From Clostridia bacterium (GTDB taxonomy: Bacteria; Bacillota; Clostridia; TANB77; CAG-508), in the NCBI GenBank assembly GCA_017437145.1, contig JAFSBT010000009.1, positions 7,234 through 71,233 on the forward strand: a DNA stretch of 64,000 bases, read 5' to 3'. The notes below the pieces were generated by a model. The model was given only the letters and a program-made list of their open reading frames with translations, ran no database searches and was not told the DNA's origin. Below are positions 23,535 through 52,847 of the stretch, piece after piece (within the stretch, counting starts at the first letter, position 1; each line of letters opens with the position of its first letter). Made by a program: the position numbers and the translations under genes.

Positions 23535-23881
23535 GTAGAGTTATTTGAACAGTCGCTGGTAAAAATCGCAAGGTTTTACGAGAGGAAAGTCCGGGCTCCA
23601 TAGAGCAATGATGCTGGATAACGTCCAGTGAGGGCAACCTTAAGGAAAGTGCAACAGAAAATAACGGCCTAACAAGGCAAAGGTGAAAAGGCGAGGTAAG
23701 AGCTCACCGCTACTATGGTGACATAGTAGGTCAATGCAAACCCCATCTGGAGCAACACCTAAGTACAAGAAGGTTAAGACTGCTCGTCATCTTCTTAAAT
23801 TGGTGGCTTGAGGTATATAGTAATATATATCCTAGATAAATGACTGTTTTAAACAGAACCCGGCTTATAGATTAACTCTAC
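23535..23881 (+). ncRNA. rnpB: RNase P RNA, type B (Firmicute type)
   Basis: GAGGAAAGTCCGGGCTCCATAGAGCA, GGTAAGAGCTCACC, ACAGAACCCGGCTTA conserved blocks. P1 pairs GTAGAGTTA with TTAACTCTAC. Confidence 0.9.
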
Positions 23882-23976
23882 ATGAAAGAATATAGGTAAA
23901 CCTGTATTCTTTCTTTTTGTTTAAATTTTTATTATTAAAAGACAATAATAGATTAACAGATATTATTAAAGTTCTC

Positions 23977-25184: not shown

Positions 25185-25229
25185 TTTTTATAAAAAAAAA
25201 TGATAAAATGCATTTCTAATATGAAAAAC

Positions 25230-25467
25230 TATGAAAAAGAGGAGTATGATTTAAACTGCTTTACAGAAAAAAGAAGCCAGCGGCTGAGAGCTTCTTTAAG
25301 AAAGAAAATCAGAAGGTAGCTTTGGAGTTGATTAACTGAAAAATAGTAGTAAGTTAATTCGTAAATCTGCGTTAAAGATGTAAGAGACATATAAATTATT
25401 AATTTATATAAATTTAGGTGGTACCGTGAGCAAAAGCTTGCCCTATATAATAGGGCGAGCTTTTTTA
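25230..25467 (+). promoter_or_regulatory. T-box leader controlling valS
   Basis: T-box sequence AATTTAGGTGGTACCGTG at 25411-25428. Terminator AAGCTTGCCCT-loop-AGGGCGAGCTTTTTT. A GUA (Val) specifier is plausible at gaaGGTAGc, but the 5' boundary is approximate. Confidence 0.8.
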
Positions 25468-49300: not shown

Positions 49301-49922
49301 ATTAAGAGATGAAATAAAGAGTCTAGGTAGTATAAATATTGATTCTATTGAAGAATACAAACAAACTAAAGAAAGATATGACTTCATGAGTGAACAAAGA
49401 TTAGATTTAGAAACTTCTAGCACAAAACTTAAAAAAGTAATCGCAGATATTACTAAAACTATGAAAGAACAATTTTCAAAACAATTTAAAGTAATTAACA
49501 AAAACTTTGGAGAAGTATTTAAGGAATTATTTGATGGCGGACAAGCTGAATTAAAATTGATTGATGAAGAGAATATTTTAGAGTGTGGAATTGAAATAGA
49601 AGTTCAACCACCAGGAAAGAAACTTCAAAGTATGAGCTTATTGTCAGGGGGAGAAAAAGCGTTAACAGCAATTGCGTTACTATTTGCAATATTGAAAATA
49701 AATCCAGCACCATTCTGTGTGTTAGATGAAATTGAAGCAGCACTTGATGATGTTAATGTATACAGATTTGCTGATTATTTAAAGAAATTTACTAAAGATG
49801 TACAATTTTTAGTAATAACTCATAGAAAAGGAACAATGGAAGCGGCAGATACAGTTTATGGAATAACAATGGAAGAAAATGGGGTTTCAAAGTTGTTATC
49901 AATGAAACTTGACAAGAGATAA
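46365..49922 (+). CDS. smc: chromosome partition protein Smc
   Basis: 1185 aa. GPNGSGKSN Walker A, hinge, LSGGEKALTAIALLFA signature, C-terminal Walker B. Confidence 0.97.
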   Translation: MYLKRLELQGFKSFADKTVLEFMPGITTVIGPNGSGKSNISDSIRWVLGEQSMKSLRGSKSEDIIFAGTQNRKSLGFAEASIVIDNSDGKLPIEYSEATVTRRIYRNGETGYFINKTPCRLKDVLELFMDTGIGKDGYSIIGQGKIDEILSNKSEDRRKIFEEAAGIVKYRTRKAESEKKLEQTKLNLLRINDILSEIEVNIEPLKIQSEKAKKFLDLREELKAIEIGLFIYNIDIYKVKIEELIKDIEIIKAQNEEEEKNLELLNEKKLTLKMELDEITSKVEEMQNLGFESSTKIEKINSEINVTNEKIANNNENCLRYQKEIEEVNLRIKELEEEKVSRIEKKETLGANRERFVTELEEKEKALEEITKKLSAEEALIEEKKREVESKTDLKYEKKELINTQDINYENLEKREKTIKVEIVDTISELDEKRLIKSEISKGFTEIDNKRNECKKRLEQISTKKEEYESKTAEYDNKINNLTSEYRVKESKLKFLTDMEKEKEGYARSVKSLLLECDKNTGLNKGMHGVLANLISVPKEYETAIEMVLGLTLQNIVTDTEEDAKKLIEYLRTNNLGRASFLPISSVKGKKVDKLIKNGLGGVVGLASDLVKVDKKYEDIILNLLGRTVVVEDMDTAIILARQNKYGFKIVTLKGDIINPSGAISGGSVTQKSNGIIGRATGIKELEKDLKSLALKIEKIESEKEKYEKDSENVFEEITGIGIEMQEIEISHATEKQRMISIEETVTRLEKKLESLKTEQEQIGENKQKNREEREFLEKENIEIESLIENLSIEIKNFAEKNKDNQKYIDDLNFDITNLKISLTSFDESSLSLDEIISRIDSDIANYKNSINYKKEESEKAKLENETLKEQIVNLNSEIENIKAQVTNSSNIIEELKETRKVKNENLDKIDTDVINKYKVIEDLKNQISKLDVKKSKLDFELEQTVNKMWEDYEVTPNGLNDEYKKPENVAKTTKKVKELRDEIKSLGSINIDSIEEYKQTKERYDFMSEQRLDLETSSTKLKKVIADITKTMKEQFSKQFKVINKNFGEVFKELFDGGQAELKLIDEENILECGIEIEVQPPGKKLQSMSLLSGGEKALTAIALLFAILKINPAPFCVLDEIEAALDDVNVYRFADYLKKFTKDVQFLVITHRKGTMEAADTVYGITMEENGVSKLLSMKLDKR

Positions 49923-49944
49923 AGTTTATGGTAATATAATACAT

Positions 49945-50088
49945 ATTTCAAATAAAGCTCTGTAAGAGCAAAGCTCCGTTATTGGAGAATTAAATAACAT
50001 ACTTCTAGGAGAGCAACACTCTCCTTTCGTTTGAGCATCCGTTTCGGGGTAGGAGACCATTTGTTAATGGTCTCCTATTCCCATTTTG
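49945..50088 (+). ncRNA. tandem structured-RNA unit U1
   Basis: Promoter TTGACA(49909)-17-TAATAT. Hairpins GCTCT-GTA-AGAGC and CTCC-GTTATT-GGAG. Terminator TAGGAGACCA-loop-TGGTCTCCTA + TTCCCATTTT. Confidence 0.55.
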
Positions 50089-50162
50089 TTAGAAATAATA
50101 TTTTTATATAATTATATATATAACACTTGACAAAAGAATTAAACTGTGTTAACATAATAAAT

Positions 50163-50300
50163 ATTTAAAATATACTCTGTATAGAGTGAATTTCCGTCAT
50201 AGGAGAGTAATAAAAAGTTCTACTAAGGCTTTTTAGCCAGTGTCATAACTTTTTCCGGGGATGAGCGATCATTTATCAAATGGTCGCTTATTTCCATTTT
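50163..50300 (+). ncRNA. tandem structured-RNA unit U2
   Basis: Promoter TTGACA(50127)-17-TGtTAACAT. ACTCT-GTAT-AGAGT and TCC-GTCATA-GGA. Terminator GAGCGATCA-loop-TGGTCGCTT + ATTTCCATTTT. Confidence 0.55.
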
Positions 50301-50366
50301 AAGGATAAAATTTAGGTGATTATAAAAAACTTGACAAAAAATAAAACGCGTGGTAACATAATATAT

Positions 50367-50500
50367 ATTTCGATATCACTCAGTATTGAGTATATTATCC
50401 GTATTGGAATAAGAATAGACAACTTCGTAAGGACTTGTTCCTGACTCTTTTCATAGCTGGGGTAGGAGACCGTTTGTCAACGGTCTCCTATTCCCTTATT
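50367..50500 (+). ncRNA. tandem structured-RNA unit U3
   Basis: Promoter TTGACA(50331)-17-TAACAT. ACTCA-GTAT-TGAGT and TCC-GTATT-GGA. Terminator nearly identical to U1. Confidence 0.55.
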
Positions 50501-50579
50501 TGGGAATAATACTTTGATTTGATATAAAAATATATAGAATGAACCTGACAGGGAAACAAAAAAATGTTAATATAAGCTA

Positions 50580-50714
50580 TATTTGACAAAGCTCTGTATA
50601 GAGCACTAACTCCGTATTAGGAGTTGTGGGAGTGCGCAACAATTGTTATTTGTAAGCCATTCGAAAGTACTCCTACAAAGGGGGAGCCATCCATTTTTAT
50701 GGTCGGCTCTTTCT
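50580..50714 (+). ncRNA. tandem structured-RNA unit U4
   Basis: Promoter CTGACA(50545)-17-TGtTAATAT. GCTCT-GTAT-AGAGC and CTCC-GTATTA-GGAG. Its terminator abuts the asnB-like stop. Confidence 0.5.
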
Positions 50715-50720
50715 ATAAGT

Positions 50721-52442
50721 TTACAACTCAAATCTAGGATTAAATTCTTCAAGCCACATATTTAATTGAATTAAATATGCCATAAGTTGAGGGCCAGTCA
50801 TTAATTGACCAAACCATGGTTTTGAAAAGTTTTTACCATCAGTATTTAATATTTCAAAAACATAATCGTCATTAATTAAATTATGGATAGGTGATGATTT
50901 GTTTTCCATTATTTCTAGTAACATATTTTTTACAACTTTTAAGTAAGTTGGATTATGTGTTTTAGGATATGGACTTTTTTTTCTTTCTATTATTTCTTTA
51001 GGAAGTAATTTGTTCTTATCCATAATTAATCTTAATAATCCCTTTTCTCTACCATTTAAGGCTTTCATTTCCCAAGGAATATTCCATACATATTCTACCA
51101 ACTTATAATCGCAGAAAGGAACTCTAATTTCCAAACCATTACTCATTCTTTCAGCTCTATCTAAAAGTGTTTGCATAAACCAATTAAATGTTAAATGAGA
51201 GATTTTTCTAGAACGTTTAGTACTTTCAGAGTCATTATTTAAAAAAATAACTTCTGAAAGACTTTCATTATATCTATAATCAATATACTCTTTTAAATCT
51301 AGTTTTTTACTTATTTCTGGATTTAAAATGTTTTGTCTTTCCAATGTTGCTAATGACCATGGAAAAGTATTAGAAGTTAATGAATTTTCATTAAAAAACC
51401 AAGGATATCCTCCAAAAACTTCATCAGCACATTCTCCAGAAAATGTGATAGGACATTCTTTTTTTATCTCTTTGCAAAAAAGAAGTAAAGAAGAATCTAC
51501 ATCTGCCATTCCTGGATATCCTCTTAATAACATAGCTTCTTTTAAAGCTTTAGCAAGTTCAGGAGTATCTATAATAAATTTTTTATGAGATGTTTTATAG
51601 GTTTTTCTCATAATGTCTATATAATAGTTATCTGAATTTGGTTGAAATTCACTTTTAACGAAATGCTTATCATTATCTAAGTAATCTACGGAAAAAGTTT
51701 TTAAAGGCAAGCAATTATTTTTTTCAATATTTTTATATGCATAGGCTGTCATTATGCTAGAATCTAATCCACCAGAGAGCATAGTACAAATGTTTTTTTC
51801 GTCTCCTAGTTGCTTATTGATGGCAGACTCCAATAGATAGGCAACATGAGCACAAGTAGTATCTAAATCATCTTGATGTTCTTTACTATCAAGTTTCCAA
51901 TACTTATTAAAATGAATATCATTTTTATTAAATATTGAATAATGAGCAGGTTTTAATTCAAACACATCTTTAAAAGTGGTGAAACCAGGAGTGTGAGCGG
52001 GGCCAATTCCAAATATTTCTCCAATACTTTGTTCATTTAATATTGGAGTTAAATGAAATTCATCCAAAAGATTTTTTATACTTGAAGAAAAATATAAAAC
52101 ACGGTTTTCCATATAATAGTATAAAGGTTTTACTCCAAAATGGTCACGTGCTAAGAATAATTCTTCTTTCTTAGTATCCCAAATTGCAATAGAAAAAACT
52201 CCATCTAAATAATTAACAATATCATAACCATATAAAATAAATAATTTTACTAGAATTTCTTCATCACTATTTGATTCTAACTTAAAATTGCTTTCAGTAA
52301 GAATATTTTTCAAATTAGTTTTATTATATAATCTACCTCTAAAAATAATAAAATATTTATTTGAAGAATAATTTATTTCAATAGATTCTTTAAAAAAACA
52401 TTTATCATTTGCTTTAAAATCAACATAACCAGTAATAAACAT
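50721..52442 (-). CDS. asparagine synthase B-family protein with degenerate glutaminase domain
   Basis: Synthetase PP-loop MLSGGLDSS is intact. The N-terminus is MFITGY instead of MCG..., and RGRLYN replaces NGEIYN. Confidence 0.8.
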   Translation of the reverse strand: MFITGYVDFKANDKCFFKESIEINYSSNKYFIIFRGRLYNKTNLKNILTESNFKLESNSDEEILVKLFILYGYDIVNYLDGVFSIAIWDTKKEELFLARDHFGVKPLYYYMENRVLYFSSSIKNLLDEFHLTPILNEQSIGEIFGIGPAHTPGFTTFKDVFELKPAHYSIFNKNDIHFNKYWKLDSKEHQDDLDTTCAHVAYLLESAINKQLGDEKNICTMLSGGLDSSIMTAYAYKNIEKNNCLPLKTFSVDYLDNDKHFVKSEFQPNSDNYYIDIMRKTYKTSHKKFIIDTPELAKALKEAMLLRGYPGMADVDSSLLLFCKEIKKECPITFSGECADEVFGGYPWFFNENSLTSNTFPWSLATLERQNILNPEISKKLDLKEYIDYRYNESLSEVIFLNNDSESTKRSRKISHLTFNWFMQTLLDRAERMSNGLEIRVPFCDYKLVEYVWNIPWEMKALNGREKGLLRLIMDKNKLLPKEIIERKKSPYPKTHNPTYLKVVKNMLLEIMENKSSPIHNLINDDYVFEILNTDGKNFSKPWFGQLMTGPQLMAYLIQLNMWLEEFNPRFEL

Positions 52443-52482
52443 ACACCTCCAAAATATTTATATCAATAAATTTGTTGCAAAC

Positions 52483-52645
52483 GTTGTAGGGGCGACCATT
52501 GGTCGTCCGCTCTTCGAAGAAATCTCTATTAATGCAAAATTAATAAATATAAAAATTTAAATTATAGAATAAAACAGCAAACATAAATTTATTATTTTAG
52601 GTATTCTTATAAAGCACGGACGACCAATGGTCGCCCCTACAACGT
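52483..52645. repeat. family-A halves as terminal inverted repeats around a 92-bp AT-rich spacer (MITE-like)
   Basis: GTTGTAGGGGCGACCATTGGTCGTCCGCTCTTCGAAGA ... AAGCACGGACGACCAATGGTCGCCCCTACAACG. Confidence 0.8.
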
Positions 52646-52744
52646 TTAAAATAAATATTAATCATTTAACAATATTATATGAAAAAATAAAAAAATGTTG
52701 CAATTTTATTTGACAACAATTATAAGTTATGGTAAAATATTCAT

Positions 52745-52835
52745 CTGTAAGCCGCATAAGTCGGGTTTTAAAGCTTATTTATATAATAAGCTACCTAGAT
52801 TTTAATCTTAGCGAGTATTTAAAAGAAAGTGGAGG
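52745..52835 (+). promoter_or_regulatory. structured 5'-UTR of rplU (possible L21 leader)
   Basis: Promoter TTGACA(52709)-17-TAAAAT. Hairpin AGCTTATT-loop-AATAAGCT. Identity to the L21 leader family not verifiable here. Confidence 0.35.
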
Positions 52836-52847
52836 TGCTTCCAAAGT

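Follow-up and report, generated by a model that had tools for sequence, protein, structure and literature searches.

The stretch of DNA considered here (64,000 nt of contig JAFSBT010000009.1 from a Clostridia bacterium, assembly GCA_017437145.1; hereafter the window) carries a tandem array of four related units, U1 to U4, at positions 49,909–50,722 of the forward strand. In terms of open reading frames (ORFs) the array is located between the stop codons of smc and of a convergent asnB-like gene. The G+C content of the window is 28%, and the spore genes SpoIVA and SpoVT lie near the array. Each unit comprises a promoter followed by the sequence of a predicted small RNA (sRNA) that ends in a terminal hairpin. 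An initial annotation had described four paralogous promoter–RNA–terminator units at this place, and the phased promoters, the repeats and the folds presented below confirm it.

Architecture of the four units

The units follow each other with start-to-start spacings of 218, 204 and 214 bp, as measured with a repeat finder; the 200–215 bp given originally is correct for the last two, and the largest spacing is slightly longer. The copies are only ~60–65% identical to one another overall. Their paralogy is shown by a covariance model built from U1–U4 (termed R1), with which they score 112–135 bits.

Each unit begins with a near-consensus promoter of the sigma-A type. The −35 hexamer (TTGACA in U1 to U3, CTGACA in U4) starts at the first position listed for each promoter in Table 1, and is followed by a 17-nt spacer and a −10 box, TAATAT or TAACAT, that is preceded by TG. 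The hexamers and the spacer are as initially annotated; the TGn-extended −10, noted there for U2 and U4, is present in all four units. The region contains 14 promoter-like sites compared with 8.6 expected, and the four unit promoters are among the five best-scoring sites on its plus strand, in phase with the repeat. The −35 box of U1 sits inside the last codons of smc (AAA CTT GAC AAG AGA TAA, 49909–49922).

The predicted RNAs have the same order of elements in all four units: an AU-rich 5′ tail, three hairpins P1, P2 and P3, and a terminal hairpin of 12–18 bp that runs into a series of U's. Their folding energies were compared with those of dinucleotide shuffles (z scores in Table 1). P1 is a 5-bp hairpin with a GUA(U) loop, the sequence being GCUCU-GUA-AGAGC in U1, ACUCU-GUAU-AGAGU in U2, ACUCA-GUAU-UGAGU in U3 and GCUCU-GUAU-AGAGC in U4. 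P2 is a hairpin of 4–6 bp with the form (C)UCC-loop-GGA(G). P3 is also a hairpin, with an unrelated sequence in each paralogue. In the minimum-energy fold of U3 the 3′ arm of P2 is taken up by P3. The earlier description of P1, P2 and a variable hairpin, with compensatory changes in P1, is borne out. The core motif TATTT-N-RCTCWGTAWWGAGY-N-TCCGT has 3 occurrences in the window, where 0.00 would be expected.

The terminal hairpin is G+C-rich. The terminators of U1 and U3 are 88% identical, and that of U4 has a poor U-tract. Strong terminators had been proposed throughout; this is right as regards the long terminal hairpins of all four and the similarity of U1 and U3, but U2 and U4 were missed by a simple terminator scan.

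Conservation among the paralogues is distributed as a mosaic. The mean pairwise identity is 70% in the promoter, 71% in the core (tail, P1 and P2) and 68% in the terminator, compared with 54%, 50% and 48% respectively for a shuffled partner. In the variable part it is 49%, against 48% for a shuffled partner. The copies are old enough to have randomised where they were free to do so.

Table 1. Units of the array and the adjoining genes, in window positions
Feature	Position	Strand	Basis or remarks
smc gene, 1185 aa	46365..49922	+	ORF list; Pfam SMC_N/SMC_hinge on identical protein
U1 promoter: TTGACA, 17-nt spacer, TGg-TAATAT	49909..49937	+	scan: 10/12 matches, TG present
U1 predicted sRNA, ~148 nt	49943..50090	+	fold z = −6.4; terminator scan; R1 125.6 bits
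U1 parts	5′ tail; P1 49957–49969; P2 49974–49987; P3 50007–50025; terminator 50046–50081 plus U-tract
U2 promoter: TTGACA, 17-nt spacer, TGt-TAACAT	50127..50155	+	promoter scan
U2 predicted sRNA, ~140 nt	50161..50300	+	fold z = −5.3; R1 135 bits
U2 parts	P1 50174–50187; P2 50191–50206; P3 50212–50254; terminator 50257–50295
U3 promoter: TTGACA, 17-nt spacer, TGg-TAACAT	50331..50359	+	promoter scan
U3 predicted sRNA, ~136 nt	50365..50500	+	fold z = −3.6; terminator scan; R1 131.5 bits
U3 parts	P1 50378–50391; P2 50398–50408, competing with P3 50406–50441; terminator 50459–50494
U4 promoter: CTGACA, 17-nt spacer, TGt-TAATAT	50545..50573	+	promoter scan; TAACAT in most other contigs of the species
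U4 predicted sRNA, ~144 nt	50579..50722	+	fold z = −6.0; R1 112 bits
U4 parts	P1 50591–50604; P2 50609–50624; P3 50625–50677; terminator 50679–50713; weak U-tract into asnB-like stop codon
Convergent asnB-like gene, 573 aa	50721..52442	−	Pfam GATase_6/7 plus Asn_synthase

Orthologues and conservation of base pairing

The four-unit array is also present on nine other metagenome contigs of this species, with no more than two single-nucleotide polymorphisms (at 50239 and 50571). The latter is a T>C change in contigs L002–L007, L022 and L023, converting the −10 box of U4 into TAACAT. Three sister lineages were revealed by a search for AsnB homologues with the full-length protein, to which a search with the C-terminal fragment added none. 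They are represented by short contigs (L018, L019 and L024), each with a single unit. It had been asked at the outset whether the array always follows smc or adjoins asnB; the order smc – unit(s) – asnB, with asnB on the minus strand, is found in all four lineages. The AsnB-like proteins of the sisters are about 90% identical to that of the window (89% for P0121 of L018 and 91% for P0122 of L019), and that of L024 (P0365) is a further member of the P0122 cluster.

A covariance model from the four copies was among the checks suggested initially, and R1 matches all three single units, with 116 bits for L018 (E = 1e-21), 127 for L019 (6e-24) and 45 for L024 (7e-7). The L018 unit is of the U1 type, with 94% identity overall and 5 substitutions before the U-tract; the asnB DNA beside it is 87.8% identical to the window. 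The L019 unit is of the U2 type (85% identical), with compensatory changes in P1 and the terminator. L024 has a divergent unit of the U4 type, behind a promoter at the smc stop codon, the RNA of which adopts the same four-hairpin fold (z = −4.3). The −35 box in the end of smc is kept in all four lineages, including L019, where the matching −10 box is deleted; the breakpoints in L019 share the microhomology AGA. The terminators of U1 and U4 have just about 6–8 nt in common, and the junctions in the sister lineages lie in stretches too short for collapse by the assembler. Three different paralogue types survive as singletons; a multi-unit array must therefore predate the split of the lineages, and it collapsed independently. 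None of the four lineages is without at least one unit, and in all of them the U-tract of the last unit comes to within a few bases of the asnB-like stop codon or overlaps it.

Seven distinct sequences were compared over three consensus helices. Standard pairs make up 89.7% of the pair cells, a value reached by 0/500 column shuffles, and controls in which the partner strand was slid give 34–54% pairing. Ten of the 25 pairs are changed on both sides, and again 0/500 column shuffles are as high. P1 is paired in all seven sequences (100%); its changes are G-C to A-U at the closing pair, U-A to A-U at the loop-closing pair (in U3) and U-A to U-G (in L024). Between the terminators of U2 and L019 there is one double change, C-G to U-A, along with four G-U transitions. 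A six-sequence version of the analysis was also run and counted as support for compensatory changes. The stems are thus kept by compensatory changes.

The next relatives are only 75% identical in SMC. In two of them (L008, from a human-gut metagenome, and L009) smc is followed directly by the promoter and leader of rplU, with neither unit nor asnB in between, and a relative with 71% SMC identity has a different gene context. Since the units and the asnB-like gene are both absent between smc and rplU in these 75% relatives, they represent an insertion specific to a narrow clade. In the window the rplU promoter (TTGACA...TATGGTAAAAT) and leader (UCAUCUGUAAGCCGCAUAAGU...) are in front of rplU, at 52711–52847. 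The same promoter and leader come directly after the smc stop codon in L008 (8552–8688) and L009 (8552–8802). The leader is recognised by no Rfam model, that of the L21 leader included.

R1 picked up no additional copy, either in the window or in L008–L017. Scans with a degenerate motif gave 2 matches in GTDB genomes, both inside apparent coding sequence, and 5 in JGI metagenomes; R1 scores all seven at chance. Viral contigs gave 0 motif matches, and blastn against plasmids and phages gave no match. The GTDB and JGI scans did not recover the species of the window, and the motif required loop sequences that are variable in L024; with no positive control and a motif so demanding of the loops, absence elsewhere is weakly supported. 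The initial annotation had named a lack of homologues beyond the locus as an argument against a genuine RNA family. Homologues do exist, but only at the same locus in very close relatives.

Nature and probable action of the RNAs

The units are non-coding. No ORF of at least 10 codons is common to them in position or sequence on either strand, and none is hydrophobic, in agreement with the initial observation that there is no conserved ORF, now checked on both strands of all units. Short ORFs with ATG begin in the terminator loops of U1, U2 and U4; U3 and L019 have no ATG in the loop, and only two short ORFs carry a Shine-Dalgarno-like motif. The loop sequence ATGGTC of U1, U2 and U4 is ACGGTC in U3, where the opposite arm is altered from ACCATT to ACCGTT. 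This matching change points to the constraint of a stem and not of a coding sequence.

The region 49,900–50,730 contains no match to Rfam 15 at the gathering score. In E-value mode the best matches reach 17–20 bits against thresholds of 51–229 (E = 0.36–10), which is the level of chance. The view that the units belong to no known riboswitch or sRNA class is upheld by these searches, and nothing describing this RNA was found in the literature on tandem or multicopy sRNAs in Firmicutes and Clostridia. Several specific assignments were considered and rejected. RsaE/RoxS (RF01820) is a Firmicute sRNA with C-rich stretches beside its terminator; the match (50053–50130) reaches 19.1 bits (E = 2.3), where the gathering score is 79, and the alignment comprises just the U1 terminator and the spacer following it. 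A cis-regulatory leader, riboswitch or attenuator does not fit the arrangement, as beyond every terminator comes either the promoter of the following unit or the convergent gene, and there is no cis-regulatory match in Rfam. A dispersed repeat or miniature inverted-repeat transposable element (MITE) is contradicted by R1, which even with the filters off detects no copy besides the four within the 64 kb of the window, and none in the flanking sequence of relatives. Finally, the units do not derive from the rplU (L21) leader, the transcribed parts being dissimilar in local alignment (p = 0.2–0.8 against shuffles). Only the promoter of U1 is similar to that of rplU (p about 0.008), and this may be due to the promoter consensus alone.

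The four units are paralogous and non-coding, each with its own promoter and terminal hairpin, as in sibling sRNAs. LhrC1–5 of Listeria monocytogenes offer a close parallel, in a host that is also a low-G+C Gram-positive; lhrC1–4 are found at one locus, each with its own promoter and terminator, and the copies are thought to be additive or redundant (PMC4132741), as may be the case for U1–U4. The LhrC copies are, however, nearly identical and induced by LisRK, unlike the more divergent units here with their constitutive-looking promoters, and redundant UCCC motifs in the loops and a single-stranded stretch of LhrC pair with Shine-Dalgarno sequences (PMC4132741). Membership of the LhrC family was rejected, because our units have no conserved unpaired C-rich motif; UCCC is confined to the terminators of U1 and U3, where it is paired in the 3′ arm, and is absent from U2, U4 and L024. 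Nor do the units match LhrC in sequence or structure, and no LhrC is found among the Rfam matches up to E = 10.

Other sibling sRNAs include Qrr1–5 of Vibrio, OmrA/B, PrrF1/2 and the streptococcal csRNAs. These have a conserved single-stranded seed and a promoter that depends upon a regulator (sigma-54/LuxO, OmpR, Fur and CiaR respectively). The present units are like them in being duplicated paralogues with a common module and divergent parts, and in a copy number that varies among related species. They differ in that the conserved part consists of two short hairpins and the promoters are of a plain sigma-A type, and there is no Rfam match to any of these families.

Taken together, the data lead us to favour, with some reserve, the reading of the units as a young, clade-restricted family of constitutive, highly transcribed, trans-acting sibling sRNAs, in which the P1–P2 core is the common module, P3 is specific to each paralogue and the copies are redundant or additive. 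Sibling sRNAs had been suggested initially, and the suggestion gains from the absence of an Rfam match and of a shared ORF, from the mosaic conservation, from the single-unit orthologues and from the compensatory changes in the stems. Each unit would be transcribed alone, constitutively and at a high level from its near-consensus promoter of the sigma-A type, and the RNAs would act in trans. The twin-hairpin core may dock a single partner protein shared by all copies, or may serve as a structured recognition element; either seems preferable to a linear seed because the stems co-vary while the loops and the tail are not invariant. Differences among the paralogues in specificity or stability could come from P3. 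As with other multicopy sRNAs, the copies would for the most part be redundant or additive, and so collapse to one copy would be tolerated and yet at least one retained. Unequal recombination, involving the promoter and core segments that are repeated along the array, could make it grow and shrink.

A number of points weigh against this sibling sRNA reading. The units are known from DNA sequence, and the transcripts and their ends are predicted from the promoters and terminators. The pair counts come from seven closely related sequences of one narrow clade, in an alignment fitted to the model. Terminator stems are needed by any transcription unit, and their conservation could simply serve to end transcription of smc and asnB. 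There appears to be no conserved unpaired seed across the clade; the P1 and P2 loops and the 5′ tail, constant in the window, differ in L024 (GUAC, GCGGUA and AUAGAUG). A duplex search with the core against the 65 initiation regions of the 64-kb window gave nothing better than shuffled cores. Lastly, the coding DNA flanking the U2-type unit of L019 is 92–96% identical, so that the unit is less conserved than its surroundings.

Other explanations must also be weighed. CsrB and RsmZ-type RNAs are abundant, structured and sequester proteins, with many GGA motifs in hairpin loops. The present units resemble them as structured RNAs with repeated short motifs, presumably abundant, for which dosage would be important. 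They could be decoys that titrate 30S subunits or an RNA-binding protein, whether CsrA-like or of another kind, via GGA or AGGAG motifs or the twin hairpins, with the copy number setting the dosage. The strong and apparently constitutive predicted promoters are compatible with this, as are a conserved structured core lacking a conserved single-stranded seed and a copy number that varies from 1 to 4. GGA occurs 2–3 times per unit compared with 1.5 expected. These triplets are, however, all located in stem arms and not in hairpin loops, and on this ground membership of the CsrB/RsmZ type of sponge was rejected. At least three (A/U)GGAG motifs per unit had been reported; U1 does have three, but U2, U3 and U4 have one each, so the motif is enriched in U1 only. 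The idea of a Shine-Dalgarno decoy put forward initially fails for the same two reasons. Moreover, L024 departs from the other sequences in the loops of P1 and P2, and no candidate partner gene is linked to the locus. We regard a decoy function as unlikely.

A more elaborate proposal is of a newly born, rapidly amplifying class of abundant RNA, a Firmicute RNA that sequesters a protein but is unrelated to 6S or CsrB, in which P1 and P2 would dock a specific protein of a gut Clostridiales clade. Unequal recombination would adjust the gene dosage (1–4 copies), and the founding promoter would come from capture of that of rplU, which follows smc in relatives. This proposal is speculative and the chance that it is correct is small.

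The units might alternatively be cis partners of the asnB-like gene, the last one providing an antisense RNA, transcriptional interference or a shared bidirectional terminator, and the units and asnB might have been inserted as one module. They strictly co-occur, both being missing between smc and rplU in the 75% SMC relatives, and the position of the last U-tract at the asnB stop codon is maintained in the four lineages. Yet only the last unit can overlap asnB, while U1–U3, at 200–800 bp from it, also keep promoter and core. The long terminators speak against read-through, and the hairpins of the minus strand have no proper U-tract. In addition, the asnB-like gene looks to be decaying (Cys2 lost, N-terminally shorter gene calls) while the units are kept. 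A role of this kind is rather improbable.

It is about equally doubtful that the units are non-functional by-products, that is tandem duplicates of an intergenic promoter–terminator segment, transcribed or not, with no selected RNA function. The distribution is extremely narrow (no match in the genome, metagenome, viral, plasmid and phage scans), three lineages are down to one copy, and the U2-type orthologue evolves faster than the flanking genes. Furthermore, the rplU promoter, which that of U1 resembles, holds the same position after smc in relatives. Against this, all four copies retain the −35 box, the spacer length, the extended −10 box, P1, P2 and the terminator, though the variable part has reached shuffle level. 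P1, P2 and the terminator all show double compensatory changes, and none of the lineages has lost its last copy.

The remaining two explanations fare worse. P1 and P2 might act in the DNA, as operator sites for a dimeric DNA-binding protein downstream of the four promoters. P1 is indeed a perfect 5+5 palindrome, without G-U in six of the seven sequences, and symmetric changes would also keep a DNA palindrome. Its centre measures 3 nt in U1 and L018 and 4 nt in the other sequences, P1 of L024 and P2 of U2 pair only through G-U and so are not palindromic in DNA, the P2 loop varies from 5 to 6 nt, and the architecture runs on into P3 and the terminator, all of which make operators very improbable. 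Repeats encoding a small protein or type I toxin with an antisense regulator in each unit would suit the tandem arrangement, such loci being described in one account as often tandemly duplicated (PMC2887945), and short ORFs do begin in three terminator loops, but the lack of an ORF common to all units on either strand, of hydrophobic peptides, of a loop ATG in U3 and L019 and of a Shine-Dalgarno-like motif at all but two ORFs effectively refutes this.

If expressed, the units represent an sRNA family that is undescribed and of very narrow distribution, in a gut-type lineage of Clostridiales that is uncultured. The locus would provide a clean natural record of the evolution of a sibling array, which goes back to at least three paralogues, is fixed at four copies in one species and has collapsed three times independently to a different single paralogue. 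Retention of the promoter, twin-hairpin core and terminator while the rest was randomised gives a handle on the selected parts of a sibling sRNA, and the array is a test case for redundancy versus specialisation. The multicopy (sibling) kind of sRNA is already known; nothing here is categorically new or bears on a long-standing open question, and as the host is not yet manipulable the practical impact is modest.

The asnB-like gene and other features of the window

The asnB-like gene at this place is found only in the clade that carries the units. Alignment with relatives of 615 aa (~60% identity) reveals that its protein begins MFITGYVDF instead of MCG. The catalytic Cys2 is missing, as are ~41 residues of the glutaminase domain; the domain of the PP-loop synthetase is intact. 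Gene calls in the sister lineages are shorter at the N-terminus (530 and 463 aa; L018 2672–4264, L019 826–2217, L024 580–1971). From these sequences the gene appears to be in decay, or in the course of losing the glutaminase domain.

Between the start codon of the asnB-like gene and the rplU promoter there is an inverted repeat of ~180 nt (window 52470–52650), with arms GTTGTAGGGGCGACCATTGGTCGTCCG and CGGACGACCAATGGTCGCCCCTACAAC. In the E-value mode of Rfam it matches plant miRNA-precursor families alone (these being long hairpins), with 43–46 bits, below threshold. It looks like an element of the MITE type, and may mark how the asnB segment was inserted.

Elsewhere in the window a gene for a dnaE-type DNA polymerase III alpha subunit is divided into three ORFs of 527, 303 and 347 aa on the plus strand (40473–42056, 42085–42996 and 42953–43996), with one short gap and one overlap of 44 nt. 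The same split is called on the independent metagenome contigs L001–L006 and L022; a frameshift or stop, recoding, or a gene that is genuinely in pieces could each account for it. The other Rfam matches are RNase P class A, one T-box leader and two tRNAs (23537–23883, 25222–25448 and 62987–63154).

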